Shown: in pieces, positions 4,861-62,904 of the stretch
How positions within the stretch are numbered: position 1 is the stretch's first letter
Layout: each line of letters starts with the position of its first letter
From: Abditibacterium sp.
GTDB lineage: Bacteria; Armatimonadota; Abditibacteriia; Abditibacteriales; Abditibacteriaceae
Direction: 5' to 3'
Length of the DNA stretch: 64,000 nt
Assembly: GCA_965246885.1 (NCBI GenBank)
Contig: CBDFFV010000001.1
Span: 8,364-72,363, forward strand
Notes under the pieces: generated by a model
Databases searched by the model: none
Told to the model about the DNA's origin: nothing
What the model saw: the letters and a program-made list of their open reading frames with translations, nothing else
Position numbers and translations under genes: made by a program

Positions 4861-4943
4861 GCTCACCGTGTGGCGGCTCACCGTGTGGCGGCTCACCGAG
4901 TGGCGGCTCACCGAGTGGCGGCTCACCGTGTGGCGGCTCACCG
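4861..4943. repeat. 15-bp tandem repeat x5.5 between convergent genes
   Basis: GCTCACCG(T/A)GTGGCG repeated from 4861; the last partial unit contains the ABC transporter stop codon. Confidence 0.95.
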
Positions 4944-6848
4944 ATACGACTGCGCTTGCGTTTCAAACAGGTTGGCGTAAAGGCCGCCTTGGGCGAGCAG
5001 TTCCTCGTGCGTGCCGCGCGCGACCAAAACGCCTTTATCGAGGACGCAGATCGAGTCGGCCAAGCGCACCGTCGAGAGGCGGTGCGAGATGAGTAGGGCG
5101 GCGCGGCCTTGCACCAATTCGCGGAACGACTCAAACAGTTCGGCTTCGGCGCGCGGATCGAGGGCGCTGGATGGCTCGTCCAAGATCAGCAGTTGCGACG
5201 GGCGTAAAAAGGCGCGCGCGAGGGCGATTTTCTGCCACTGTCCGATGGAAAGCTCCTCGCCACCCGCGAAGTCGCGGCCCAACAAAGTATCCAACCCTTC
5301 GGGCAAGCGGTCGGCAATACGATTGACGCCCGCGCGATACGCTGCTTCTTCGACTTGGCGGCGCGTGAGGGGTGACATTAGTTCGCGCCCTTCGGGAGAA
5401 ACAACGTCGCTGTCTCTGGGGTGCGTGGCGGGCAAGCGCAGGTCGCCCAGCCAGATGTTCTCGGCGAGGGTGAGGGAATAGTGGTTGTAGTCTTGGAAAA
5501 CCGCCGAAATGCCGCGCCGCCACTCGACGGGGTCGCAGTCGCGCGCGTCCACCCCATCGAGCGCGATGCGCCCGGCATCGGGGTCATACAAACGGCAGAG
5601 CAGCTTGACGAGGGTGGTTTTGCCCGACCCGTTCTCGCCCACAAGCGCCACCACTTCGCCCGGAGCAACCGAGAAAGAGATGTCTTTCAGGGCTTGGCGC
5701 TCGGAGTTGGGATAGCCAAAAGAGAGGTTCTCGACCGTCAAGCCGCTCTTCCAGCGCGTGGGCAACGCCTTGGGAACGGCGGGCGCGACGAGCTTGGGTT
5801 GCAAGTCGAGGAACTGATACAACAGAGACAAAAACGTGGTGTCCTCGTGAAGCGACAAGATGGAGCCGAGGGTGCCTTGCATCGAGCCTTGCGCGCGTTG
5901 CACCGCTCCGAAATACATCACCAAGGCGCCCAGCGAGAGGGTGCCCGCGAAGGTTTTCGAGGCGATATACGCGAGGAGCGCGAAGGTGGGCGCGACGACG
6001 AACAGTTGCACGCTCCCGTCGGCCAGCATGCGCCGCCGCGCCACGCGCAAACGTCCGCTTGATAGCCACGCGCGCATGGCGTCGAAGCGGGCGCTGAAAA
6101 AGGGCGCCATGTCGAACAAGCGCACTTCCTTGGCGAAGGGTTCGAGCGTCAGCAGGTAGTTGAAGTACCCCGCGCGGCGCTCGATGGGCGTGCTTTTCAT
6201 CGTCCATTCCCAAAGAATGGACACAAAGCGCAAACGCACGAACAAGCCCGGCAGCACCGACAAGAACAGCACGAACGGCACAATGGGATGGAGCGTGAAC
6301 AGCAAGGCGCCGATGGCGGCGAGCGAAAAGAGGTTTTGCCCCAAGCTGGTCAGCCCGTTCACGATGCGCGTCGGGCGAAAGGGCGCTTCTTCTTGGGCGC
6401 GATGGAGGGAGTTGAAGAACTCGGCGTTCTCGAAATACTCCAAATCCATGCGCGCCGCCTGTTTTTGCACGAGCGCGCTCATGCGCCGCGACACGACCAG
6501 CCCTTGCCCCTCGCTTACGAACGACGAAGCCGTCGAACACAAAGAGGAAAGAAGCGCGACGCCGCCCGCGAGCGCGATGAGTTCGAGGGAAACGTGCCAT
6601 GCCGCTTCGCGCGCGGCACCGGGCAGGAGCGTCGCCCCGTGCGTAACCGCGTCCACGATGCGCCCCAGCAACCACAACGAGGCGAGCGGCAAGATGGCGC
6701 CCGCCGCCACCAAAAGCAGCGACGCCGCCATCCACCCCGGCCCGCTTGACCAAACCAATTGGATGGCGCGTCCCAATAGTGCCAGAGAGCGCACGCGGCT
6801 CCAGATGCGGTGTTTCACAAAAAGAAGTAGTGTGGTCGAAGCACGCAA
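4938..6848 (-). CDS. ABC transporter permease/ATPase (lasso peptide exporter, D protein)
   Basis: N-terminal TM domain; GENGSGKTT, LSIGQWQ, LLILDE, ISHR. Last gene of the lasso cluster. Confidence 0.9.
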   Translation of the reverse strand: MRASTTLLLFVKHRIWSRVRSLALLGRAIQLVWSSGPGWMAASLLLVAAGAILPLASLWLLGRIVDAVTHGATLLPGAAREAAWHVSLELIALAGGVALLSSLCSTASSFVSEGQGLVVSRRMSALVQKQAARMDLEYFENAEFFNSLHRAQEEAPFRPTRIVNGLTSLGQNLFSLAAIGALLFTLHPIVPFVLFLSVLPGLFVRLRFVSILWEWTMKSTPIERRAGYFNYLLTLEPFAKEVRLFDMAPFFSARFDAMRAWLSSGRLRVARRRMLADGSVQLFVVAPTFALLAYIASKTFAGTLSLGALVMYFGAVQRAQGSMQGTLGSILSLHEDTTFLSLLYQFLDLQPKLVAPAVPKALPTRWKSGLTVENLSFGYPNSERQALKDISFSVAPGEVVALVGENGSGKTTLVKLLCRLYDPDAGRIALDGVDARDCDPVEWRRGISAVFQDYNHYSLTLAENIWLGDLRLPATHPRDSDVVSPEGRELMSPLTRRQVEEAAYRAGVNRIADRLPEGLDTLLGRDFAGGEELSIGQWQKIALARAFLRPSQLLILDEPSSALDPRAEAELFESFRELVQGRAALLISHRLSTVRLADSICVLDKGVLVARGTHEELLAQGGLYANLFETQAQSYR

Positions 6849-7844
6849 TTAGCCCCGCGTTTCGCGCACCAGCCGCGTCACGGTTTCGATGGTTTGCGGC
6901 AACAGCGCGAGGTCGCGGCGGCGCGACAGTTCCCAGACATGGCAGTGAGCGGCTAAGGCTGCGCACGCGCGAAAGTGCGCCACGCGCCGCGCGCCAGTCA
7001 AATACAAGTCACTCCAGCGCGCAGCGAAAGTATGGGGGAGCAACTGCCCCAGCGCTTCTCCCGGCGACAGCGCGCGGGCATCTATGTCGGGACGCGCGGG
7101 GTCATCGTGCGAAGCCAACAGGAAAACGTGTCGCAACGGGCGGGCGGCGCTCGCAAGCGGGGCCATGAAGTACTGCTTGTCTACTAACCCCATGCCGTCC
7201 AGTTCGGGCGCCACGCGCGGGAGGGTGTCGGGCGCCGCCCCAACGACAGCGCGCACCGCGTCCGGCACCAATTTCATCGAACCAAATCCCACGCGCGCGA
7301 GCGGCGCTCCCAACGGCGCGTCGGACGCGAAGTCAAGGGCCAGCACATCGTCGCAAAACAAGGGATAACCCGCAAGCGAAAACGCGGCGCCAAGGGTGGA
7401 TTTGCCTTGCCCCTTGTCGGCGGCAAAAGCGCAGGCAACGGGTTGGCCATCGGCGTCAGTCATTTCAACGGCGCCCGCATGGAGCGCCAACCAACCGCGC
7501 GCTTCGAGCAAAAGGGCCAAAACGCTGCCAAGAAGGGGCACGCGCCACGTCGAAGCGGATGTGCCTTCAAGCGGCTCAACCAAAACGCGCGCGTCGCCCT
7601 CGATTTCAAAGCGGCCCACTTGGGCAAAAAGCAGGGAAGAAGAGTTCTCGGAAAAGCTCAAAACGTTCTCGATGGGGGCGTCGGGCGCGTTTCGTGCTTC
7701 AACTTCGGCGAGTGGTAAAGTCCTGCCCACTTCAATCGAAACGTCAGCGCCCCCACTCGCATCGAACGCGGGCAAATCGGGCAAGGCGAACTGCGATTGG
7801 AAGCGCAGGCCGTAAGCGAAGCGGCGGTCAAGCGGCGGGGTCAT
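6849..7844 (-). CDS. HPr-kinase-like lasso peptide kinase (PadeK/ThcoK-like)
   Basis: LHAGAV, P-loop ADKGQGKST and LFCDD motifs; adjacent to precursors ending in Ser. ATG at 7844. Confidence 0.8.
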   Translation of the reverse strand: MTPPLDRRFAYGLRFQSQFALPDLPAFDASGGADVSIEVGRTLPLAEVEARNAPDAPIENVLSFSENSSSLLFAQVGRFEIEGDARVLVEPLEGTSASTWRVPLLGSVLALLLEARGWLALHAGAVEMTDADGQPVACAFAADKGQGKSTLGAAFSLAGYPLFCDDVLALDFASDAPLGAPLARVGFGSMKLVPDAVRAVVGAAPDTLPRVAPELDGMGLVDKQYFMAPLASAARPLRHVFLLASHDDPARPDIDARALSPGEALGQLLPHTFAARWSDLYLTGARRVAHFRACAALAAHCHVWELSRRRDLALLPQTIETVTRLVRETRG

Positions 7845-7860
7845 GGTGGGGTAGGGCACA

Positions 7861-7902
7861 AAAACAAAAAAGGCCCGCAATGGAGCCTTTTGAGTTTTGT
7901 TT
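7861..7902 (-). terminator. Intrinsic terminator downstream of the lasso precursor genes
   Basis: Minus strand reads AAAAGGC-tccattgcgg-GCCTTTT followed by TTGTTTTT. Confidence 0.65.
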
Positions 7903-8002
7903 GCTGCGTATCAGGAAGATTGTGCGGCCAAAGCGCCCTTGTCCGGGCCGGAGTCAGCGATTCGTGGATTGCAGGTCGGTCGTTCTTTGAACGTGGTGTC
8001 TC

Positions 8003-8146
8003 TTACGAGAGGCTCGTATTAATGAGGCTCACGCTGGAGCCAGCGATCAAAGTGCGGTCGAGTTTGCTTCCGTGAGAGTTCTGCTGGGTGATTTGCGCAA
8101 CGGTGCCATGAACGGTCAGTTGCGGGGTTTGGTAGGATTTTTTCAT
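8003..8146 (-). CDS. Lasso peptide precursor A2 (47 aa): [47 protein letters not shown]
   Basis: Hand translation. YxxPxL...G leader motif, Thr at -2, Asp at core position 9, C-terminal Ser. Not in the ORF track. Confidence 0.88.
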
Positions 8147-8232
8147 CTGTTGGCACTTTGAAGTGGGAAGTGGGTAGAGATGATCCGATCCTTTGCTTGT
8201 CCCCTTAGCACCTTGGGAGGCGCCGTCTCAAG

Positions 8233-8370
8233 TTACGAGAACAAGAGGTTCTTTTTGGGAGTGTTCACGGGGAAGGAACGGTCGAGGTTGTCGCCGTCTT
8301 TGTTCCCTTGGGTGATTTGCGCAACGGCGCCGTGAACGGTCAGTTGCGGGGTCTGGTAGGATTTTTTCAT
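8233..8370 (-). CDS. Lasso peptide precursor A1 (45 aa): [45 protein letters not shown]
   Basis: Hand translation. Strong SD (AGGAGGT) upstream; YxxPxL leader, Thr -2, Gly1, Asp9, C-terminal Ser. Not in the ORF track. Confidence 0.92.
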   Translation of the reverse strand: MKKSYQTPQLTVHGAVAQITQGNKDGDNLDRSFPVNTPKKNLLFS

Positions 8371-8463
8371 GTGTTGTCACCTCCTGTTTAAGTGGAATAG
8401 GGTTTGTCCAGCTAACCTCGGCCCGGACAAAAGCACCTAAGCACGTCTCATCTTCCTCTCCAA

Positions 8464-8493
8464 AGCATAGCATACGGTTTGGACGCGGTGCAA
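8464..8493 (-). promoter_or_regulatory. Putative sigma70 promoter for the precursor genes
   Basis: TTGCAC (8493-8488), 18 nt, then TATGCT (8469-8464) with an extended -10 TG; AT-rich UP-like tract upstream. Confidence 0.5.
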
Positions 8494-8534
8494 GCACAAT
8501 TTTTCTTTTAACAGTTAAAGTTATCTACGGGCGC

Positions 8535-10580
8535 TCAAATTCCTCTTACCTGTTCCGTTTGTGTAAACGCCATGTTTCCTGAACTCCCCTTTTCGACGCC
8601 TTGCAGCCACGCGCCAAGGGCCAGTACTCGCCACAGAGCAAATGCGACGCGCGTGACATGACCGCCGGAGGGCGGCAGAATTTTTAATTCTTCCCACAAG
8701 CGGTGCACGGCAGCGACGTCGAGCCACTCAGCCAGCGCGCCCGGTTCTTCCAGCCATGTTTCAATGCGTGCGGCTTCAACCGCGCGCAGCCCATGAATCA
8801 TTTGCGGCGCGAAGTTCGTTTTCGCGGCCCGCCATTGCACTCCCGGAGGTAGTAGCCCTTGCATCGCGCGGCGCATGACCCAGCGATTCCAGCCGTCGCG
8901 CAGTTTTTGATCGGACGGCAGGCTTAGACACAGTTCCACCATCTCCTGCTCCCAAAACGGAACGCGCACTTCAAGCGCGTGCGCGCCCGCCTGAGAATCT
9001 ATCGCTTCGAGGGCAACCGCTTGCATGGCAGTCCCCAACATTTCGGCGTGGTGGGCGCGCACGATTGGACTAGCGGGAGGAGAAGAAATGGCCGGCAGCA
9101 AAGCGCGTTTGTCGGCGCGCACCAGTTCTCGCACCAATGCGGCGCTTTCTTCGTCTTCCGACGCGGAACCGGAGCGCGCGCGAGGAAAAGGCATGGCCTC
9201 GATGCCGCGTGAAAACAGGCGCAGAAAACGTCCGAGGAAGCGGGTGCCGCGCGCGCGTTGCATGAGCGGCCCCCACCACAACGGCCAGATGGATTGATTG
9301 GTGATGCCAGCGCGCCGCAGGGCGCGCAGTTCGTGGCGCGCCGCCCCGAAACGACGCTGAAAGGCCAATTCCGCCACCCGCTCGTAACCCAAAAAGACCA
9401 CTTCGTCGCCGCCGTGCCCATCCAACACGACCTTCACGCCCGCTTCTTGAAGCGGTGGGTATTGCACCCACGTCGAGCAGGTGTTGGGGCCAAGGGGGGG
9501 GCCATCGAGGTGCCACACGACGCGCTCGATGTCGTGCAAGGCGCCAATGTCGTCGCCCCAAACCCACTCGCGCCGGAGCTTGTCGCCCGCCAAGGCGAGG
9601 TTTTGCTCGATCCAAGGGCGCTCGTCGCATTCGGCGAAGCGGGCAAAGACCGTCGAAAGCGCCAAAAGAGGCACTTTGTCGGGCGGGGCTTGGCGGATCG
9701 CCACCGCCGCCACGGACGACGAGTCCAACCCGCCCGACAAAAACGTGGCCAGTTCGCCCGCGCTCCGGCTGCGCTCGGCGACGCTGCGCTCAAAGGCCGC
9801 TTTCACCCTTTGGGCGTAATCATCATCATGCGGAAGTTCCAATTCGCGGCTCGCGTCGAGGCTGAAATACTGCCCTTGGCGCGGTGAGGCGGACGGGTGG
9901 GCATCGAGTGCAAGCGAAAGGGTGCGCGCGGGTGCCAAGCGCTCGACGCCCTCATAAAAAGTGCGTGTGAAAGAAGTAATTTCCCCCGCGAGATATGCGC
10001 CGATTTGAACCTCGTCGGGGCAGGGCGGGAAGGGCAGGGCGGGCCACAGCGCCTTGATTTCGTTGGCGAAAGCGAACACGACGCCCGGCACGAAAGCGAA
10101 GTAAAAAGGTCGCACGCCGAAGCGGTCGCGCGCGCAGAAAAGGGTCTGATTCTTTTCGTCCCACACGGCGAAAGCGAAGTCACCCTTTAAATGGAAGGGC
10201 GCTTCTTCGCGCCACAAGGAATACGCTTCGAGCGCCAAGCGTCCGTCGCTCCACGCCCGCGCTTTCGTTGTATCAAGTCCAAGCTCGAACGCCAACGCTT
10301 CCCGTCCGTCCAAGCGCACGTCACCGACCAACCGCAACCACTCGCCGCCATCGGCGCTTGGAAGAGAAAGGGCGGCGGCGCCCCCAGCGCATTCCCACTG
10401 CGCTTGCGGGGTGGCGTTGAGCGGAGCGGAACCTAACGCGACGGCGCCGCGTGCGTCCGTCCAGCGCGCGTTCCATCCGGCAACGTCTACCCGATGGCGC
10501 AGACGCTCCAGCATAGTGGCGGCGACCGCGTCAGAAGCCTCGCTGCCGTCCAAGCGGACGTATCCGACAAAAGCGCTCAT
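8535..10580 (-). CDS. Lasso peptide cyclase / isopeptide-bond synthetase (C protein, AsnB-like)
   Basis: ARDRFGVRP, LSGGLDSS, GHGGDE, EVRVPFW. Starts MSAFVG without the catalytic Cys of true AsnB. ATGA overlap with the B2 stop. Confidence 0.9.
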   Translation of the reverse strand: MSAFVGYVRLDGSEASDAVAATMLERLRHRVDVAGWNARWTDARGAVALGSAPLNATPQAQWECAGGAAALSLPSADGGEWLRLVGDVRLDGREALAFELGLDTTKARAWSDGRLALEAYSLWREEAPFHLKGDFAFAVWDEKNQTLFCARDRFGVRPFYFAFVPGVVFAFANEIKALWPALPFPPCPDEVQIGAYLAGEITSFTRTFYEGVERLAPARTLSLALDAHPSASPRQGQYFSLDASRELELPHDDDYAQRVKAAFERSVAERSRSAGELATFLSGGLDSSSVAAVAIRQAPPDKVPLLALSTVFARFAECDERPWIEQNLALAGDKLRREWVWGDDIGALHDIERVVWHLDGPPLGPNTCSTWVQYPPLQEAGVKVVLDGHGGDEVVFLGYERVAELAFQRRFGAARHELRALRRAGITNQSIWPLWWGPLMQRARGTRFLGRFLRLFSRGIEAMPFPRARSGSASEDEESAALVRELVRADKRALLPAISSPPASPIVRAHHAEMLGTAMQAVALEAIDSQAGAHALEVRVPFWEQEMVELCLSLPSDQKLRDGWNRWVMRRAMQGLLPPGVQWRAAKTNFAPQMIHGLRAVEAARIETWLEEPGALAEWLDVAAVHRLWEELKILPPSGGHVTRVAFALWRVLALGAWLQGVEKGSSGNMAFTQTEQVRGI

Positions 10581-11053
10581 GACGTTGCGCCACCGGGAGA
10601 GGGCGGCGCAAGAGTAGCCGATGCCCCTTTGGGCGCGACCGTCAAGAGCGGTTTCCACCTCTCAATCGGCCCCCCGATGATGACCCGACCCTTCCACTCG
10701 ATCCATGCGTGCGCTTCAAACGGTTTGCGTTTGTTCGCGGTGGCGTCCACTCCCAGCACCAGCGCACACACCTCGCCCTCGCGGGCCAATACTGTTTGCA
10801 GCGTGAGAGCTTGGGTGAGACACGAGGCGCGGGGAACAAAACGTGCCGCCCGCCTGACCGCATGGGCGCGCCGCCACACTTCAAAGGGCACCAATTCCGC
10901 CACCTGACTGGCCCGCGCCGCGTCGAGCAGGCGCGACGCGTCCTCTTCCCACTGTTTGGAGCAGGAGGTGATGGGGCTGCGCCACAGCGCCCACCGCACG
11001 CGGGCGACGAGCGGCAAGTAGCGAAACGTCAAAGCCAAATCTTGCGAGGCCAT
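10577..11053 (-). CDS. Lasso peptide leader peptidase (B2, transglutaminase-like)
   Basis: SCLTQAL...LVLGV...FEAHAWIE (Cys-His-Glu/Asp triad pattern). Start uncertain: ATG 11053 or GTG near 11104. Confidence 0.88.
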   Translation of the reverse strand: MASQDLALTFRYLPLVARVRWALWRSPITSCSKQWEEDASRLLDAARASQVAELVPFEVWRRAHAVRRAARFVPRASCLTQALTLQTVLAREGEVCALVLGVDATANKRKPFEAHAWIEWKGRVIIGGPIERWKPLLTVAPKGASATLAPPSPGGATS

Positions 11054-11094
11054 AGTTTTGGAACAGGAAGACCGGGGGAAAAGGGCGCTCCGGC

Positions 11095-11382
11095 TTATTC
11101 GCACACTTCGATGAGTCCGCGTTCGAGCAGTTGACCCAGCAAGGCCAACACGTCGTTTTGGCACTGCGTGGCTTCGACGTCGTATTCGTCCAGTAGCTGC
11201 GAGGTGATCTCTTGGATTTCGCGCGGGCTTTGGATGAGTTCCCAGATGCGCGCTCCGACGGGATCGAGGCCGTAGTAGATGCCGTTTTGCAAATCTAAGA
11301 TAGCCGCTTCGCCTGCGAGGTCGCACGAGACCTGCTCGCTGGCGGCTTTAACTTGGGTTGTGGGCAGGAGAGTGTGTGTCAT
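11095..11382 (-). CDS. PqqD-family RiPP recognition element (lasso B1)
   Basis: 95 aa; EAAILDLQNGIYYGLDPVGARIWELI...EYDVE...DVLALL.QL.ERGLI. Confidence 0.93.
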   Translation of the reverse strand: MTHTLLPTTQVKAASEQVSCDLAGEAAILDLQNGIYYGLDPVGARIWELIQSPREIQEITSQLLDEYDVEATQCQNDVLALLGQLLERGLIEVCE

Positions 11383-11406: not shown

Positions 11407-12909
11407 TTATTCGGCGTCAGTGTCGCGCGCGGCGCTTCCATTGAGGTATTGACCGTTGCGCGCCACGATTTGAAGCGCGGGCAGGGGAGCCGGTTCACCA
11501 GTGGCGGGGGCCGCATCGTGAATTTGGGTGAGACCTCCTCCGCCGTCGAGAGGCACACTGGGCTTCGATTGTTCGGAGCGTTCGCTGATGGCGGGCAAGT
11601 CGGGTGTGACCAACCGGGTGGGTGCTTCGACCGACACGATGTCGGAGGGCGCACTCGGCTCGCGTTCGCCGATGACAGTTTTACCGTCCGGGGCCAAAAT
11701 GTGACGGCGGCGGTCGAACCACGCGAAGCGTCCGGCTTTGACGACGGCGCGGCGGCGGTCGCCCTCGCGCGGGTGGCCTGCTGGATTGCGGCGGCGATCG
11801 CCGGTTTCGTCGCGGCGGTCGCCGGGGCTGGTGGTAGCAATGACGTGCTGGATTTTGGCGCGGAAACTGGGGGTATCGAAGCGCATGGCGTTTTCGCGGA
11901 TGACTTCGGGGTTCCATTCATGGGCGTAAGCGCGCTCGACCGCTTCGCATAGCGCTTCAGTGGTTTGCGGGCGGAACAGGATGCCGCTTTTGCCCTCGAC
12001 TTGCACGTCCAAGGCGCCGCCTGCGGCAAACGCCACGACCGGCACGCCCGCCGCGTTCGCTTCGACGGGCGCGATGCCAAAGTCTTCCTCACCGGGCATC
12101 AGATACATCTTCGCGCGGGCAATAAGGCCGGGCAGGTCGGCGTCGGACACGTAACCCAGAAACTCAATCGTCGGCCCGGCAATGGCTTTGAGAGCGTCCA
12201 ACTGGCGCCCGGTGCCAATCACTTTCAGGGGTTGGCCTAATTTTGTGAACGCGCGCACCGCCAAATCTACGCGCTTATATGGCACCAAGCGCGAAGCGAC
12301 GATGCCGTAGTCCCCGACCTCACTGCGCGGGGCGAGTTGGAATCGTTCGGTGTCCACCGGCGGGTGCACGACTTCGGCTTCGCGGCGGTAGAACTTGCGG
12401 ATGCGGCGCGCGACGGCGCTGGAGTTGGCGATATACCTGTCCACGCGCATAGCGGCGATGGCATCCCACGTGCGCAAATAGTGCAGCCCCGGCGCAAGCA
12501 TCGAGCGAATAGGGGAGGAGATGCGTTCTTTCTCGACGTAAGAGGTCGTCGCCCAAGCGTAGCGCATCGGCGAGTGCGTGTAGCAAATGTGGGTGGTGTG
12601 CGGCTGGGTAATGACACCCTTGGAAAACGCCGACGAGCTTGACAGTACGAGGTCGTAACTGCTCAAATCGAACGATTCAAAAGCGGTCGGGTAAAGCAAA
12701 AGCGCCGCACGGTGCGTCATCCGCTTGGCGGGCAAACGCTGCAAAAACGAGGTGCGAATATCCCAAGAGCGATACGTAGACGGCATCGCGTCGGGGTCAT
12801 ACGCCGACGTGAAGACGGGCGCTTCCGGGAAAAGGTCGTGGAACACCTCGACCACCTTTTCGGCGCCCCCCATTTGCATCAAAAAATCGTGGACAATTGC
12901 AACTCGCAT
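11407..12909 (-). CDS. GT4 glycosyltransferase with Arg-rich (DRR repeat) C-terminal extension
   Basis: MRVAIVHDFL..GGAE, YTHSPMRY, EEDFGIAPVEA. About 140 extra residues at the C-terminus; stops 24 nt before B1. Confidence 0.88.
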   Translation of the reverse strand: MRVAIVHDFLMQMGGAEKVVEVFHDLFPEAPVFTSAYDPDAMPSTYRSWDIRTSFLQRLPAKRMTHRAALLLYPTAFESFDLSSYDLVLSSSSAFSKGVITQPHTTHICYTHSPMRYAWATTSYVEKERISSPIRSMLAPGLHYLRTWDAIAAMRVDRYIANSSAVARRIRKFYRREAEVVHPPVDTERFQLAPRSEVGDYGIVASRLVPYKRVDLAVRAFTKLGQPLKVIGTGRQLDALKAIAGPTIEFLGYVSDADLPGLIARAKMYLMPGEEDFGIAPVEANAAGVPVVAFAAGGALDVQVEGKSGILFRPQTTEALCEAVERAYAHEWNPEVIRENAMRFDTPSFRAKIQHVIATTSPGDRRDETGDRRRNPAGHPREGDRRRAVVKAGRFAWFDRRRHILAPDGKTVIGEREPSAPSDIVSVEAPTRLVTPDLPAISERSEQSKPSVPLDGGGGLTQIHDAAPATGEPAPLPALQIVARNGQYLNGSAARDTDAE

Positions 12910-13423: not shown

Positions 13424-14713
13424 TTAAGCGGTAAGCTTGGCGGCGAGTCGGTCGGGGAAGCGCTCTTTGACTTCGCGGCGGCGCCCGCGCGTTATCTCCC
13501 CGCGCGCTCCTGCCGTGCCGGGGTTGTCACGCAAGAAGGGCGCGAGTCCCTCCCGCACGCGCTCCTCGATGGCTGTTTGCTCGTCGGGCGCAAGCTCGGC
13601 GAAGACGGCATCCAGCGCCTGATTCTGCTCCTCCTCGTCCTCGAAATCTAAGGGTAAAAGCGCGCGCGGCCCGAAATCGGGCAACAAGATTTGTCGAAGC
13701 GAACCGGGAGGGGGCGTTAATGGGCCGTTGACGGCCATTCCCGGCGCTTGTGGCGCTTCCGGGCCATGATGTGCCAAAACGGGAGAAAGCGGGCTTCCAA
13801 AGCGAAATGTGGCGAGCGGCTCGCCATCTTTGGCCGCCTCGATTTCCATGCTTTCGAGATACCCGCGCGAGATGAGTTCCTCGACGGCGGGCGCCAGTTT
13901 TTCGCGGATTTTCGAGGGGTATTTGTAGGGCGACATTCCCAATCGGTCGCGCAACTTCCACAAACCGAGGGTGATGATCTTGCGCGGCGGCTTGTCCGCG
14001 TGACGCAGTAACTCCAGCAGGCGAAACAAGCGCCGCGAGGTCGGCGAGTCGAGCGAGATGGCGAAATCGAGCGCGAGCGAGCGCACGTTGCCCGCGTGAA
14101 AAGAGGTGTGGAGTACCTCGTCCCAATGAAACCACGAGAGCGGCAGATGCCCCTGCCCCTTGCGTCCGCGCGCTTCGGCGGAGATGGCGTAAGAACTGAT
14201 AATACCAAAAGCAATGGAATCGTAGGGCGCTTTGCGGCGCGCGTCCCAAAAGGCGTGTTGCGCCGCGATGTGAACCGCGCTCAAGCGGTTGAACGCCAGC
14301 TCCAACTTTTTGTACCCGAGGTCGTTCGGGTTCCAGTCGAGCCGGGAAAGTAACTCGTAGCGGGAGAAAGTGACTTTTTGCGGCCACTCGCTTCCGGCGG
14401 CGGCTTCGCGGGTGAGTTGCAGCAAGACGAGATACAGCAACTCTTCGTTCGGCCCGGGCAACCCGTACGCCGTCGGAGTTGTGACATGCCACCGAGCGTT
14501 GACAAGCCTTCCGTCCGGCAAAGTACGCGGCGTTTCGGAAAGCAGTTCGTTTTCGCTTTGACGACCGGGTGGTTGTAAGAGCGCGAAGGGATGTCCGGCT
14601 AAATTCATCTCGTCGCGCCCGGAGTGATCGTCACCGAGCAAAACGAGCTGCGCCGAAGGCAACGGCGCAGCCGTTTTTGCCTCCGTTTGCGAAGCAAAAT
14701 TGCTTTTTTTCAT
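13424..14713 (-). CDS. repA: Plasmid-type replication initiator protein (RPA/RepA-like)
   Basis: DEMNLAGHPFALL N-terminal motif, winged-helix-like FSRYELL..L.W and RRLFRLL segments; adjacent to the iteron array. Alternative start at 14758. Confidence 0.8.
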   Translation of the reverse strand: MKKSNFASQTEAKTAAPLPSAQLVLLGDDHSGRDEMNLAGHPFALLQPPGRQSENELLSETPRTLPDGRLVNARWHVTTPTAYGLPGPNEELLYLVLLQLTREAAAGSEWPQKVTFSRYELLSRLDWNPNDLGYKKLELAFNRLSAVHIAAQHAFWDARRKAPYDSIAFGIISSYAISAEARGRKGQGHLPLSWFHWDEVLHTSFHAGNVRSLALDFAISLDSPTSRRLFRLLELLRHADKPPRKIITLGLWKLRDRLGMSPYKYPSKIREKLAPAVEELISRGYLESMEIEAAKDGEPLATFRFGSPLSPVLAHHGPEAPQAPGMAVNGPLTPPPGSLRQILLPDFGPRALLPLDFEDEEEQNQALDAVFAELAPDEQTAIEERVREGLAPFLRDNPGTAGARGEITRGRRREVKERFPDRLAAKLTA

Positions 14714-14793
14714 AAATTTTTTTCCAATAAGGATTTTCTTTCTACTTTCTATGTGCAAAGTATGGCTTTATAAAGCCCACGCAAGGCGATCAT

Positions 14794-31358: not shown

Positions 31359-32018
31359 TCATTTCTCCAGTTGCAACAGTTGTAATAGTTCTTGCGAGAG
31401 TGCTTCCACTTCCGCGACCGCCGCCTTGTTGTCGAGGTCGTGGACACTCTGGCCCCACACGGCGCTTTGACGAAACGCGGCGCGTTGCCGCCAGATGGTG
31501 CCGCACATCTCGATGCCGAAGCCTTCCAATATCTGTAGCGTCTCGCGCGTCAGGTTCTGGTTGGGTTGCGCCTGATTGAGAAGCAAGCGCCCCTGCAGCG
31601 TTTCGTTGATGTCGCTCAGGCGGCCAATCACTTCCCGAATTCCCACAGAAGCCCACAAATCGAGGGGCGAGGGCACAAGCGGCACGAGCGCCAAATCCGC
31701 CACTAACAAGGCGCTTTGCGGCACGACCGAATCGGCGGCGGGCGGGCAGTCAATGAGAATCACGTCATACAGCGCCACGAACTTGGCGACTTCGCGGTGC
31801 AGCTTTCCGCTTGCGTGCGCCAGCCCTACGACGGCGGCGGGAAAGGGATGCTCGTCGCTCGCCGAGGCCGCCCAGCGCGTCGCCGTTCCCTGCGGGTCGG
31901 CGTCCACCACAAGGGTATGAAGGCCGCGCCGCGCGAAAGAGGCCGCCAATTGCATGGTCGCCGTCGTTTTGCCACTGCCGCCCTTTTGATTGCACACCGC
32001 CAGAATTTTGGAAGACAT
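31359..32018 (-). CDS. parA: ParA/ParF-type partition ATPase (short, type Ib)
   Basis: NQKGGSGKTT, VDADPQG, IDCPP; 219 aa with no N-terminal HTH. Confidence 0.9.
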   Translation of the reverse strand: MSSKILAVCNQKGGSGKTTATMQLAASFARRGLHTLVVDADPQGTATRWAASASDEHPFPAAVVGLAHASGKLHREVAKFVALYDVILIDCPPAADSVVPQSALLVADLALVPLVPSPLDLWASVGIREVIGRLSDINETLQGRLLLNQAQPNQNLTRETLQILEGFGIEMCGTIWRQRAAFRQSAVWGQSVHDLDNKAAVAEVEALSQELLQLLQLEK

Positions 32019-41003: not shown

Positions 41004-42914
41004 ATGTGCGGTATCGCGGGCATCGTGTCCGGCAACCAACCCCCCGGCGACCTCGAAAAGCGCGTTCGGTCTATGACCGATGAGATGTTTCATCGTGGCC
41101 CGGACGACGGCGGAACGTATTTGTCCGACGACCGCCGCGTCGCATTTGGAGCGCGCCGCTTGGCCATTCAAGACCTCAGCCCCGCCGGTCATATGCCCAT
41201 GACCAGCGCCGACCGCCGGGTATGCATCACCTACAACGGCGAGGTCTACAACGCGCCCGAACTGCGCGCCGAACTCGAACGACAAGGCCACTTTTTCGCT
41301 TCGCACTCCGACACCGAAGTCATTCTGCACGCCTACCAAGCGTGGGGAGAACAGTGCGTCGAGCGCTTGCGCGGCATGTTCGCTTTCGCCATCCACGACG
41401 CGCGCGCAGGCAAAGCGGGCGCGGGACGGGTGTTTCTGGCACGCGACCGCTTGGGCATCAAGCCGCTTTACATCGCGGACACTGCGCGCGGGTGGGTGTT
41501 CGCTTCCGAACTGCGCGCCATCCAAGCGAGCGGGCTGATAAGCCGCGACCTCAGTAGCGCCGGAATCGTCGGCTTTTTGATGCTGGGCGCCGTTCCCAAT
41601 CCGCTCACTATCTACCGCGAAGTGCGCGCGCTCCAGCCGGGGCACACGCTGTCCATCGCACTGGGCGACACGGGCACGCCCACTCCGAAGCGATATTGGG
41701 CGTTGCCAACGAACACGGTTGAAACGAGCCACGAAGCCGCCGTCGAGGAAATTCAGCACCTGCTCCATGAAGCGGTGCGCACAGAGTTGGTGTCGGACGT
41801 GCCGTTGGGCGCGTTTTTGAGCGGCGGCTTGGATTCGAGCGGCATCGTCGCCCTCATGCGCGGCGCGACGAGTGGGCCGATTCGCACTTGCTCGATGGTC
41901 TTCGAGGAAAGCGAGTATTCGGAAGCGCCCTTTGCGCGGGCGATGGCGGAGTTTGTCGGCGCGGAACACTTCGAGCGCACCATCACCGCGCGCGACCTCC
42001 ATGACGAACTGCCCAACATCTTCCGGGCAATGGATCAGCCCACGCTCGACGGCGTGAACACCTACTTCGTGTCGCAAACCGCGCGGCAGGCGGGCCTCAC
42101 CGTCGCGCTGTCGGGGTTAGGCGGCGATGAACTGTTTGGCGGCTACCCGAACACTTTCGCGGGCGTGCCGCAGATGATGCGGCATCTGTCGCGCGCACAG
42201 ATAATTCCCGGCGGCGCGGCCCTTGCGCGCGGCGCCATCGGCCTCCTACCGCAAAAGCACCGCTTGGCGCGCGTCCATGAAGCGTTGGGGCGACCCGTCT
42301 CGCCCGCAAGCGCGTATCTGACGCGGCGCGGTTTGTTCGCGCGCCACGAAGTCCAAGCGCTTTTGTCGCGCGAGGTGTGGGAGGAGGGGCTGCGCGAGTT
42401 CGATGCGGTCGCACACGTCGCGGCGCGCGCCGATTGCAACGGCGTGCCCATCGAAGCGGGCGGGGATGTCTTCGAGTGGACGAGCCGCGCGGAGCTTGGC
42501 ACCTACACTCATCACCAACTGCTGCGCGACACCGACGCCATGAGCATGGCGCACTCCTTGGAAGTGCGCGTGCCGCTCCTCGACCACAAACTGGTCGAAG
42601 CCGCGCTCCGCTTGCCCGCCGCCATTAAACGCCAAGGGGAAGGGCCAAAGCCGTTACTGGGCGCGGCGCTCCATGACCTGTTGCCGCCCCTCATCCGCGA
42701 GCGGCGCGACAAAAAGGGGTTCACTATGCCCTTCGATCAGTGGATACAAGGGATGCGCGGCGATTTTGCGGGCGGCGGGCAAGCGCATCTGTGGCAACGC
42801 GGGGCGGTCGAGCAGGTATGGGAGCATCATGCCGCGAACCGAATGCACTGGTCGCGCGCGTGGGCGCTGTTGTCCTTGGAACGTTGGATGGAGGAACGAG
42901 CGCGCGCGGTGTAA
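41004..42914 (+). CDS. asnB: Asparagine synthase (glutamine-hydrolysing) family amidotransferase, polysaccharide-associated
   Basis: MCGIAG (Cys2 present), HRGPD, YNGEVYN, LSGGLDSS, GGDELFGGY. Confidence 0.9.
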   Translation: MCGIAGIVSGNQPPGDLEKRVRSMTDEMFHRGPDDGGTYLSDDRRVAFGARRLAIQDLSPAGHMPMTSADRRVCITYNGEVYNAPELRAELERQGHFFASHSDTEVILHAYQAWGEQCVERLRGMFAFAIHDARAGKAGAGRVFLARDRLGIKPLYIADTARGWVFASELRAIQASGLISRDLSSAGIVGFLMLGAVPNPLTIYREVRALQPGHTLSIALGDTGTPTPKRYWALPTNTVETSHEAAVEEIQHLLHEAVRTELVSDVPLGAFLSGGLDSSGIVALMRGATSGPIRTCSMVFEESEYSEAPFARAMAEFVGAEHFERTITARDLHDELPNIFRAMDQPTLDGVNTYFVSQTARQAGLTVALSGLGGDELFGGYPNTFAGVPQMMRHLSRAQIIPGGAALARGAIGLLPQKHRLARVHEALGRPVSPASAYLTRRGLFARHEVQALLSREVWEEGLREFDAVAHVAARADCNGVPIEAGGDVFEWTSRAELGTYTHHQLLRDTDAMSMAHSLEVRVPLLDHKLVEAALRLPAAIKRQGEGPKPLLGAALHDLLPPLIRERRDKKGFTMPFDQWIQGMRGDFAGGGQAHLWQRGAVEQVWEHHAANRMHWSRAWALLSLERWMEERARAV

Positions 42915-60301: not shown

Positions 60302-61657
60302 TTACCACCGCTCCCAGCGCTTGTGGATGGCGCGGGCGGGCTGGAGCACCCACCAGAGCGCATTGAGGCCCAGTGGGAGCGCGACCTCCGCGCGTTCTTT
60401 GGCGGTGGGGGTGGTCGCCAAGTGCCAATAGAAGCCCAGTCGCTTCCAAGGCCGGTCAATGGCTTGGCTGAGCAACTGATTGGTGCTCCATATCGCGGGC
60501 GGTTCCTCGCCTTCGTGGGCTTCGAGGGCATTTAACCACTCGGCTTCTTCGGGTTCGTGCCAAAGGAGAGAGGCGCGCAGGCGACTTGCCAAGCGCAGCG
60601 CATACGGCTGGCTCGACAGCCACGTGTCAACGGAAAGCGGCAACGCGCTGCCCATCACGTCGCGCACCAAGCACAAACACAGCGCCATCATGCGCTCGAT
60701 TTCCCGCTCGCGCGCCGCCACCAAAACCGCCGCCCAGTCCAAATCGGGGTTGCGCTCCAACAACTGCGCCACATCGCACAACCACAACAGGCGCTCCCAC
60801 AAGTGTTTGGCGCCATGCACCGCCAAGATGAGCAGCAAGTCGCACGGCGCCAGCGCCAGTGCCCCTGCCACTTCGCTGCGTCCGCCCAACGGGTGCAAAC
60901 CGCGCTCGACGCTTTCGTAAAAGAAGTCGAACGGCAGACACGGGGAGGTGATGGCCCAGTGCAGTTCGACGGCCAGACCTTGCGGGAAGAGCGCCGCCAC
61001 GTTCGGGGGCGCGGGGCGCTGCAGATTGAAGACCGAGTCGCGCCGCAAGTGCTCGCGCTCTTGCGAAGGGGAGAGCTGCGCCTCGTGCGCATAACCCAAC
61101 TCGCGCATCAGGGCATGGGCGCGGCGCACATCGGCGCGCGGCACCAGTAGGTCTATGTCGGCGGACGGACGCACCATACCGTTGCCATACAAAGCGAGCG
61201 CCAGCGTTGGCCCCTTGAACGAGACAACAGGCACCCCCGCCGATTCCAAGTGGTGCGTGACGTGGGCCAACTCCTTCATTAACTCCTTGGAATGGAGCGC
61301 CATCTCGCCGAAATACTGACTCATCGCCACCACCACCTGAGGGGGCACCGCCTTCCACCGACGCGCGCTCAAATGGCGCCCCAATAGCCCGGTGACGCGG
61401 TGTTGCTGACAAAGCAGCAGCACCAACCCCCAGCGAAGCGGAAGCGTGGCGCGCGGTGATGCGCGGCGCCGGTCGTCGGGAAACGGTTGCCCGCGTTCGA
61501 GCAGTTCATCGAAGCGCCGCGCCCGTTCGCCGGTCAATTGTATGCGCGCGCCCAACAACACGAACTCCGCTTCGGGCGACAGCGCCGAGCGAAAGGGCGC
61601 GTCGGGTAAATAATCGCCGGACGTGACACGGGCGGGCAAAGCGAAACGGTCGGTCAT
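60302..61657 (-). CDS. Nucleotidyltransferase family protein (NTP_transf_5-like; the type seen in lasso/PqqD clusters)
   Basis: SFKG..LA..LY, RPSADIDLLV, VELHW, HGAKH, WLCDVA. Confidence 0.8.
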   Translation of the reverse strand: MTDRFALPARVTSGDYLPDAPFRSALSPEAEFVLLGARIQLTGERARRFDELLERGQPFPDDRRRASPRATLPLRWGLVLLLCQQHRVTGLLGRHLSARRWKAVPPQVVVAMSQYFGEMALHSKELMKELAHVTHHLESAGVPVVSFKGPTLALALYGNGMVRPSADIDLLVPRADVRRAHALMRELGYAHEAQLSPSQEREHLRRDSVFNLQRPAPPNVAALFPQGLAVELHWAITSPCLPFDFFYESVERGLHPLGGRSEVAGALALAPCDLLLILAVHGAKHLWERLLWLCDVAQLLERNPDLDWAAVLVAAREREIERMMALCLCLVRDVMGSALPLSVDTWLSSQPYALRLASRLRASLLWHEPEEAEWLNALEAHEGEEPPAIWSTNQLLSQAIDRPWKRLGFYWHLATTPTAKERAEVALPLGLNALWWVLQPARAIHKRWERW

Positions 61658-61755
61658 AGAAGTGGCAAAAATAATGGTAAGGCTGTAGAGAGACTGAAAG
61701 ACGCAGTTAAACGAATCGCGCGCTCGCGGCGCACTTTTAGCGGGTCGCGGGCGCG

Positions 61756-62904
61756 CTATGCGCCGGTCAGTTGCGAGTAAATGGCCTTCATCCCCTCGGC
61801 CACGCGCGTCCACGTATACCCTGCGAGAACGGCCCGCCGCCCCGCCTCGCCCCGGAGCCGCCCTTGCGACGGGTCGCGCGCCCACCCGTTCAAGATTTCA
61901 GCAAGGGCGCGCGCGTCGCCTTCAGGAAATATCTGCCCGCCCTCGCCCACGACGTCGGGGATTGCCCCAGAATCGCTGCCAATGGCTGGAACCCCGCACG
62001 CGTTAGCCTCAATCAACACGCGCCCGAACTGCTCTTTCCAGCGCGCCGTCGTGCGCGAGGGCAACACGAGCGCATCCAAAGCCCCCATCAACGGCGCTAA
62101 CTCCGGCAGGGGCAGCGCCGCCCGCAACTGCACCCGCGCGCTTAAACCCAGCCGCTCGATTTGCGCTTCGAGGGCTGGCAAAAACTCGCCGCTTCCCACA
62201 ATGGCGCAGCGCACCGAAGCGTCGCAGAGCGCAAGGGCGTCCAGCAAGTCGGCGATGCCCTTTTCTTCGACCAAGCGCCCGATGTAGCCGCACCAAAACT
62301 CCCCCTCGCCCCAGCCCAGTTCGGCGCGTTTGGCGACGCGCTCGTCGGGAGGGAGCGGACGAAACAGATCGGCGTCCACCGCGTTGGGAACAACGCGGGC
62401 CGGGCCGGTGTAGCCCTTGCGCCGCACGATCTCCAACGCCTCAAAAGAGCGCCCCACCACGAAATCCGCGCGCCGCAACACTTGGGCGCGCATCGGCTCG
62501 AAGGGCGGCGGCAACGTCTTGTCTATGTTCTGCTCGGTTTCGCACACGACGGGCACGCGCGGGCACACTTTGGCCCGCATCCGCAGCGTGTGGAGCGAAA
62601 CAAAGCTCCAAGGCTCCTCCCAAAGGTCAATGACGTCGGGCCGGAACTCGCGCAAGAGCGCCGCCATGCCGGGATAAAAGTGCAGATACGACTGCGCCGG
62701 GCCGCACCACGCCATCTTGACGGGCTGCACTTCCAAGCGAAACGGCGCGCTTTCGGGCACGTCCGCGCCGCGCCACTTTCCGTAGTGCATCCACTTTTCA
62801 GGCGTTAGCACGCACAACTCGACGCCCGCGCGCGCCAGTTCGACCGCTTTGGGCTGGCCTTCGGTGCGCGACTGGCAGGTGTGGGAAACGAGCAGAACTT
62901 TCAT
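61756..62904 (-). CDS. GT4 glycosyltransferase
   Basis: YIGRLVEEKG, WKEQFGRVLIEA. Confidence 0.9.
   Translation of the reverse strand: MKVLLVSHTCQSRTEGQPKAVELARAGVELCVLTPEKWMHYGKWRGADVPESAPFRLEVQPVKMAWCGPAQSYLHFYPGMAALLREFRPDVIDLWEEPWSFVSLHTLRMRAKVCPRVPVVCETEQNIDKTLPPPFEPMRAQVLRRADFVVGRSFEALEIVRRKGYTGPARVVPNAVDADLFRPLPPDERVAKRAELGWGEGEFWCGYIGRLVEEKGIADLLDALALCDASVRCAIVGSGEFLPALEAQIERLGLSARVQLRAALPLPELAPLMGALDALVLPSRTTARWKEQFGRVLIEANACGVPAIGSDSGAIPDVVGEGGQIFPEGDARALAEILNGWARDPSQGRLRGEAGRRAVLAGYTWTRVAEGMKAIYSQLTGA

Follow-up and report, generated by a model that had tools for sequence, protein, structure and literature searches.

A predicted kinase-containing lasso peptide gene cluster with two precursors in Abditibacterium

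Introduction

Phosphorylated lasso peptide systems are known from Bacillota and Proteobacteria, where they are represented by paeninodin, with its kinase PadeK, and by the systems of ThcoK and SyanK (Zhu et al. 2016, as summarised in passages of PMC8498205). Other kinase-bearing systems are pseudomycoidin of Bacillus pseudomycoides (passages of PMC8498205) and the BsfK system of Bradymonas sediminis (passages of PMC10368454). The cluster described here lies on the minus strand of a 64,000-nucleotide stretch of DNA from Abditibacterium sp. (GenBank assembly GCA_965246885.1, contig CBDFFV010000001.1, positions 8,364 to 72,363), a stretch referred to throughout as the window. It consists of seven co-oriented genes, which the list of open reading frames (ORFs) places between positions 4938 and 11382 in the order B1-B2-C-A1-A2-K-D.

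Two precursors (A1 and A2), the B1 and B2 proteins, a cyclase, a kinase and an ABC exporter make up this cluster. Judged from these genes, it probably directs the formation of two lasso peptides with predicted nine-residue rings, likely phosphorylated at the C-terminal Ser. The same two C-terminally phosphorylated peptides had been proposed in an initial annotation of the window. That proposal is supported by the predicted fold of the kinase, by the kinase motif, and by an alignment of 17 precursors in which Asp at core position 9 and a final Ser occur without exception. Four features of class II split-B lasso systems are present, namely the leader, the acceptor Asp, the split B1/B2 proteins and a cyclase without the N-terminal Cys.

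The cluster is an ordinary, uncharacterised representative of a known class, the lasso clusters with a kinase for the C-terminal Ser. No new principle follows from it, kinase-tailored lasso peptides having been known since 2016. What it adds is a pair of uncharacterised cores from a barely studied phylum, one of them with an unusual Gln at position 1. Among open-access texts, no paper linking lasso peptides with Abditibacteria was found, and in those naming both a lasso peptide and an Armatimonad, neither term stands in any title or abstract.

Comparison with described systems

The systems of PadeK, ThcoK and SyanK and the Abditibacterium cluster have in common the split B1/B2 proteins, the cyclase C, an ABC exporter, a homologue of HPr kinase and precursors that end in Ser. 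Additionally, their kinases and K share a P-loop and a DD motif. The initial annotation likened the kinase to the paeninodin type. This holds insofar as the locus is a lasso cluster with a C-terminal-Ser kinase, and fails on leader and gene order. The Trp of the WxxP motif is nearly invariant in paeninodin-like leaders (passages of PMC13381572), whereas the leaders found here read YxxP. Likewise, the order B1-B2-C-A-A-K-D differs from the Bacillota order C-A-K-B1-B2-D, which together with WxxP marks the paeninodin-like systems in the strict sense. Further differences from paeninodin are the presence of two divergent precursors, the phylum (Abditibacteriota/Armatimonadota) and the unrelated cores. 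Two Paenibacillus loci (L057 and L059) have a WxxP leader, a core with Ala1 and Asp9, and a terminal Ser, in the order C-A-K-B1...D.

The BsfK system, as described in passages of PMC10368454, shares with the Abditibacterium cluster a kinase-bearing split-B arrangement in a Gram-negative lineage, the YxxPxL motif at -17 to -12 and the kinase signature H-G-G-G-K-S-D-D, the first Gly of which is Ala154 in K. In the precursor of that system, BsfA, Ile occupies -2, the ring is Gly1-Asp8, the chain ends in Asp and Ser3 is phosphorylated, and the cluster includes a nucleotidyltransferase; here, in contrast, Thr(-2), Asp9 and a C-terminal Ser are found and no nucleotidyltransferase. Precursors of the BsfK type carry Ile or Val at -2 and a conserved Ser or Thr at core position 3; in the present cluster, Thr occupies -2 and A1 has Lys3.

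The kinase of pseudomycoidin acts on the C-terminal Ser, as predicted here for K, and the system needs a nucleotidyltransferase gene, N, in its cluster (passages of PMC8498205). Neither the ORF list nor Pfam places a nucleotidyltransferase gene between 4938 and 11382, so the cluster is not of the pseudomycoidin kind. The only PF14907 nucleotidyltransferase gene of the window (181 bits; no NCBIfam match) is separated from the lasso cluster by approximately 49 kb and is situated on the edge of a polysaccharide locus. PF14907 is a family associated with clusters for lasso and related peptides that include a kinase.

The two precursors

Both leaders carry Y-17, P-14, L-12, G-8, T-2 and Q-1, and the same spacing of Y, P, L and T is given as the rule for B1-dependent lasso leaders in passages of PMC10368454. 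The NCBIfam lasso precursor model NF033528 (cut-off 33 bits) recognizes A1 at 40.8 bits (E 1.6e-10) and A2 at 41.8 bits (E 7.8e-11). These matches are confined to the leader (model positions 1-21 and 1-25, respectively) and leave the cores unmatched; A1 and A2 thus pass the model of this 'lasso_cyano' family via their leaders and differ from it in their cores. The A1 core comprises 24 residues, beginning GNKDGDNLDR and ending LLFS, while the A2 core ends TSLS. Both precursors terminate in Ser and neither core contains Cys. Among core positions 7-9, Asp9 is the sole acidic residue in A1 and A2, and in the A2 core it is the sole acidic residue anywhere.

These computed positions agree with the initial annotation, which had described two ORFs of 45 and 47 residues with a lasso leader, T(-2), Asp9 and a C-terminal Ser. 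Its further statement that the precursors were unannotated stands only in part. A1 is already present in the protein collection as a called protein (P0057) of the 72,363-base contig, and a standard NCBI model would name both A1 and A2; A2 is not among the six candidates of the same protein-collection search. Neither core string nor the start of the leader was found in open-access paper texts.

The A1 and A2 leaders are identical at 59 of 63 nucleotides and 20 of 21 residues. Over the first 30 core nucleotides the identities number 19, and this difference between leader and core indicates a tandem duplication with divergence of the cores. In two relatives, three or four precursor genes are found per cluster (L037:7858-9177 and L038:7802-9141). 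One precursor of L038 is an exact duplicate, and another copy (L038:8995-9141) shows Val(-2) and a ring region that is longer. These multi-copy precursors suggest ongoing duplication and core divergence served by one enzyme set.

Conservation among relatives

The genome, of 3.56 Mb, consists of two contigs, and the window belongs to the one of 72,363 bases. With a profile built from kinase homologues, matches at E <= 1e-10 were obtained in 22 of the phylum's 201 genomes, the window's own genome counted; within the genus, the profile matched 5 of the 9 remaining genomes. The closest relatives are recorded as Abditibacterium sp. or Abditibacteriota bacterium IAD-21. When eight window proteins were compared by tblastn with nine stretches of 12-17 kb (L033-L041), the order GT4-B1-B2-C-A-K-D proved to be kept in all six same-family relatives with wide flanks (L033-L038), GT4 being a glycosyltransferase gene treated below. 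Between C and K, each of these six has one to four precursor genes. Of the others, L039 has the kinase only, and L040 has C, K, B1 and B2 in a different order.

A word-index search with A2 found five further precursors, from metagenomes. The precursor alignment (n = 17) was composed of A1 and A2, 11 sequences from L033-L038, and P0052, P0053, P0054 and P0056; an exact duplicate in L038 was excluded, as was P0055, which equals P0054 with an N-terminal extension. Lys3, Tyr5, Pro8, Leu10, Val12, His13 and Gly14 of the precursor are invariant in this alignment, as is core Asp9, and T(-2) and core Gly5 are each found in 16 of the 17. The C-terminal Ser is present in every sequence despite the variable length and sequence of the tails. 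A terminal Ser fixed over 17 otherwise variable tails provides clean natural data on the substrate requirement of this kinase clade. Core position 1 is occupied by Ala (10 sequences), Gln (4) or Gly (3). The Gln1 precursors are A2, L035:8786-8932, P0052 and P0053, and because they align without gaps to the Ala1 and Gly1 types, Gln occupies exactly the Ala/Gly slot.

Cluster layout

The coordinates and gene list of the initial annotation, which had already placed seven co-oriented genes at 4938-11382, agree with the minus-strand ORF list. Table 1 gives the positions of these genes and of other features of the window.

Table 1. Features of the window discussed in the text (positions in the window; aa, amino acids; nt, nucleotides)
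Feature	Position	Strand	Length	Description
B1	11095-11382	minus	95 aa	PqqD-family recognition element of RiPPs (peptides made by the ribosome and modified after translation); leader-binding chaperone
B2	10577-11053	minus	158 aa	transglutaminase-like lasso leader peptidase
C	8535-10580	minus	681 aa	asparagine-synthetase-like lasso cyclase
A1	8233-8370	minus	45 aa	precursor; 21-aa leader, core GNKDGDNLDRSFPVNTPKKNLLFS
A2	8003-8146	minus	47 aa	precursor; 21-aa leader, 26-aa core, Gln at core position 1
Terminator-like hairpin	7868-7891	minus		9 pairs, then T-run; between A2 and kinase gene
K	6849-7844	minus	331 aa from ATG at 7844	HPr-kinase/PEPCK-fold peptide kinase (predicted)
D	4938-6848	minus	at most 636 aa	ABC exporter, permease and ATPase fused
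GT4	11407-12909	minus		GT4 glycosyltransferase; co-oriented, 24 nt upstream of B1
RepA-like gene	13424-14758	minus		replication initiator
ParA gene	31359-32018	minus		partition ATPase
Second asparagine-synthase gene	41004-42914	plus	636 aa	Asn_synthase 270.5 bits, full GATase domains, ~28-30% identical to C
PF14907 gene	60302-61885	minus	527 aa	'uncharacterised nucleotidyltransferase' domain

Translation of B2 and C may be coupled, as suggested by the ATGA in which the B2 stop and the C start overlap. The B2 start was taken as the ATG at 11053, around which a longer open frame extends to 11326. The reading frame of K is open as far as a TTG at 7880; the ATG at 7844 is favoured because the hairpin between A2 and K falls within the long TTG-started frame. 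This hairpin may act as an attenuator that favours precursor transcripts. A scan of 8.8 kb found 22 terminator-like sites against 14.0 +/- 4.3 in shuffled sequences, and since such sites are common in the region, a single hairpin after A2 is weak evidence.

Maturation enzymes and exporter

B1 matches the Pfam family PqqD (PF05402) at 76.6 bits, with a cut-off of 23.4, and is 80-84% identical in four same-genus relatives. B2 is recognized by the lasso B2 model NF033537 (66.4 bits, cut-off 33) and by Pfam Transglut_core3 (PF13471; 60.9 bits, cut-off 26). Cys78 and His115 are invariant among nine aligned B2 proteins, the sequence of L054 being left out for an internal stop codon.

C contains the Pfam domains Asn_synthase (179.9 bits) and GATase_7 (68.3 bits) and the PP-loop SGGLDS. 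Its start reads ATG AGC GCT TTT, the lasso cyclase model starts to match at residue 27 of the long ORF, and the C proteins of relatives align from residue 1 of the chosen start. With the N-terminus M-S-A-F there is no Cys2, and C therefore does not have the Cys nucleophile of glutamine-dependent asparagine synthetases.

D matches ABC_tran at 109.1 bits and has MsbA-like NCBIfam matches; its start is ambiguous between a TTG at 6848 and a GTG at 6818. It is syntenic and 80-85% identical in four relatives. The possibility that D is an old neighbour of GT4 and not a lasso gene was considered and rejected, the GT4-adjacent ABC gene of the lasso-less loci L064 and L065 sharing no more than 27-29% identity across the ATPase domain, and a third such locus, L066, having none. 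D is assigned, on sequence grounds, to the lasso cluster. In all, the initial annotation of B1 as a PqqD protein, of B2 as a lasso enzyme, of C as devoid of Cys2 and of D as an ABC exporter has stood up to these comparisons.

The kinase

The identity of K is most evident from its predicted structure. An AlphaFold (AF2) model was obtained with a predicted local distance difference test (pLDDT) score of 93.8 and a predicted template modelling (pTM) score of 0.90. A structural search of representative chains with this model (VIA-align) listed phosphoenolpyruvate carboxykinases (PEPCK), aligned along the full length, at Z 16.5 and 13.8 and four HPr kinase/phosphorylases (HPrK/P) at Z 11.4-13.0, with a root-mean-square deviation of 2.2-3.2 over 129-138 residues in region 129-343. 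One complex I subunit was also listed, at Z 12.5, and the next unrelated chain followed at Z 5.5. With Foldseek, PEPCKs were again the best matches (E about 5e-9). HPrK/P and PEPCK have a common fold, and the modelled structure of K is clearly of this HPr-kinase/PEPCK type.

Sequence comparisons give thinner evidence in the same direction. Pfam Hpr_kinase_C (PF07475) is matched by 7 of 27 aligned kinase homologues, with a best E of 3.5e-8, and the profile of the family reaches the HPr(Ser) kinase structure 3tqf at E 4e-4. K is 33-36% identical over ~180 residues to the kinases of two Paenibacillus lasso loci (E 4e-20 and 1e-16), where the precursor ends KPS. Passages of PMC10368454 define the lasso kinase motif as H148-G163-G166-G168-K169-S170-D186-D187 and report that most of these residues matter. 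The corresponding residues of K are H134, A154, G157, G159, K160, S161, D177 and D178; seven of the eight are kept, and all except A154 are invariant in the 27-sequence alignment. The HPr-like kinase named in the initial annotation is thus upheld by fold and motif alike. The closest subfamily of kinases is marked by an insertion of 5-6 residues between the His and the P-loop.

The same genome has, on its other contig, a second, distant HprK-related kinase-like gene, encoding 307 residues on the plus strand (G000:C1:752690-753613, equal to L041:7690-8613) and matching TIGR04352/TIGR04355 at ~22 bits. Its product is 29% identical to K over 211 residues. As a candidate second lasso locus it was rejected: it adjoins a prepilin-type DUF1559 gene and has no B1, B2 or C beside it.

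Proposed maturation path

According to passages of PMC8498205, the characterised kinases take the linear precursor as their substrate and phosphorylate it at its C-terminal Ser; the threaded peptide is not a substrate. The order of steps proposed for the Abditibacterium cluster is drawn by analogy with those systems. B1 would first bind the YxxPxL leader, and K would then move a phosphate from ATP onto the precursor, still linear, at the hydroxyl of its final Ser. Following cleavage by B2, which is expected after Thr(-2)-Gln(-1), C would adenylate Asp9 and join it by an isopeptide bond to the new N-terminus (Gly1 in A1, Gln1 in A2) around the tail, which would leave the tail threaded. Finally, the product would be exported by D.

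Weighing the interpretation

A number of observations weigh against reading the locus as a cluster for two C-terminally phosphorylated lasso peptides. B1 scores 79.6 bits with the lasso PqqD chaperone model NF033536, whose cut-off is 80. C, taken for a lasso enzyme in the initial annotation, has the lasso isopeptide cyclase model NF033535 as its best NCBIfam match, but the 455 bits lie under the curated cut-off of 525, so that this claim is borne out in part. K has no Pfam match of its own, and its only NCBIfam match, HprK-related kinase A, reaches 26 bits where the cut-off is 200. The position of the first motif Gly, which is Gly in most homologues, is Ala154 in K. No Shine-Dalgarno site is evident before A2, and among characterised lasso peptides none with Gln1 is known to us. 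Near more distant kinases, motif-picked candidate precursors lack a final Ser in L011, L013, L016, L017, L024, L055, L060 and L061; those that end in Ser are from L052, L053, L054, L056, L057, L058, L059 and L062. Lastly, according to passages of PMC10368454, the G163A change in BsfK, which corresponds to Ala154, impaired solubility, and BsfK itself acts on Ser3 and not on the C-terminus.

The conserved Gln1 core is the one unusual trait of the cluster, and A2 and its three orthologues may form a lasso subfamily with the macrolactam on the alpha-amine of an N-terminal Gln (Gln1-Asp9). A single enzyme set would make such peptides alongside a Gly1 peptide, and they would be phosphorylated at the C-terminus, in a phylum, Abditibacteriota, for which no described natural product of this class is known. 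This full proposal is tentative, its chances being put slightly below even. Passages from the open-access lasso literature that were examined for Gln as a first residue concerned Gln10-19. If the proposal holds, the same enzyme set must take Gly1 and Gln1 substrates, which bears on the tolerance of B2 and C at core position 1.

An unlikely alternative for this pair is that A1 alone is productive, A2 being a poorly processed or silent paralogue, or else yielding an Asn1-Asp8 ring after cleavage one residue further on. It would account for the want of a visible Shine-Dalgarno site before A2, where A1 has AGGAGG 9 nucleotides before its ATG, for the presence of A1 and not A2 among the protein-collection matches, and for the lack of any Gln1 lasso peptide known to us. 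Gln1 precursors with intact frames, however, occur in the four lineages named above with Asp exactly at position 9, and the A2 leader is nearly the same as that of A1. These points weigh against the alternative.

The site of phosphorylation admits a different and less probable alternative, in which K targets another residue, such as a Ser or Thr near the core's N-terminal end as in the BsfK system, or adds several phosphates, so that the C-terminal Ser is not the target or not the sole one. The Ser3 of A2, together with the action of BsfK on that position, speaks for this, as do the Thr or Ser found at core positions 2-3 in 14 of the 17 aligned precursors and the polyphosphorylation by proteobacterial kinases reported in passages of PMC8498205. 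Nevertheless, A1 has Lys at core position 3, where the residue varies from one relative to another (K, S, T, N, M, R, A or Q), so that Ser3 is unlikely as a general target, whereas the terminal Ser does not vary across the alignment. Moreover, BsfA has a C-terminal Asp and Ile(-2), unlike A1 and A2 with their C-terminal Ser and Thr(-2), and polyphosphorylation on the terminal Ser itself would be a variant of C-terminal phosphorylation. The terminal Ser is accordingly kept here as the predicted site.

That GT4 tailors the lasso peptides, so that they end up glycosylated or phosphoglycosylated, is very improbable: GT4 adjoins B1 in the window and in all six lasso-bearing relatives, and phosphoglycosylated lasso peptides do exist in the form of pseudomycoidin (passages of PMC8498205), but the sugar of pseudomycoidin is added by a nucleotidyltransferase and not a GT4 enzyme, the window, a polysaccharide locus, contains nine or more further glycosyltransferase genes, and a single-copy GT4 orthologue, 62-68% identical, is present in all five kinase-less relatives searched, where no B1, B2, C or K adjoins it. 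Because the orthologue stands without lasso genes in those five, GT4 is not counted in the cluster.

Genomic setting

GT4 has a charged and Pro-rich C-terminal extension of ~140 residues, which is kept only in the four closest lasso-bearing relatives (alignment to 491-497); with more distant GT4 orthologues the alignment reaches no further than residues 357-428. The remainder of the window forms a polysaccharide locus, which comprises genes of Wza-, Wzc- and Wzy-like type, enzymes for sugar nucleotides and numerous glycosyltransferases. The product of the second asparagine-synthase gene (Table 1) is probably a sugar-modifying amidotransferase and not a lasso cyclase.

The window also contains a RepA-like replication initiator gene (Pfam RPA, 35.5 bits, cut-off 27) and a ParA partition ATPase gene (NF041546, 194.9 bits, cut-off 180). 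With these genes, the 72-kb contig (C2) looks like a plasmid or chromid, but its ends have no direct overlap of 11-200 bases. The RepA match is absent in the nine stretches L033-L041, and the lasso block of the relatives is chromosomal, on multi-megabase contigs.

A different kind of candidate precursor is found in a record named Capsulimonas corticalis, where an ORF of 159 residues (P0058; L040:7473-7952, minus strand) lies between the lasso cyclase and the kinase homologue. No open-access text was found that pairs a lasso peptide with Peptidase_S74 or endosialidase, the domain type with which this protein is fused. Its leader has Y-17, P-14, L-12 and T-2 at the exact positions and scores 31.2 bits with NF033528 (cut-off 33), and an 18-residue core (FIGPNSGD...VIIS) is joined to a self-cleaving Peptidase_S74 'chaperone of endosialidase' domain (PF13884, 37.8 bits against 22). 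Among the 120 small PF13884 proteins listed, out of 354 matches in all, at least 56 share this leader spacing and have a short core whose final Ser immediately precedes D-x-x-x-K. One idea is that self-cleavage by Peptidase_S74 would expose the C-terminal Ser to the kinase.

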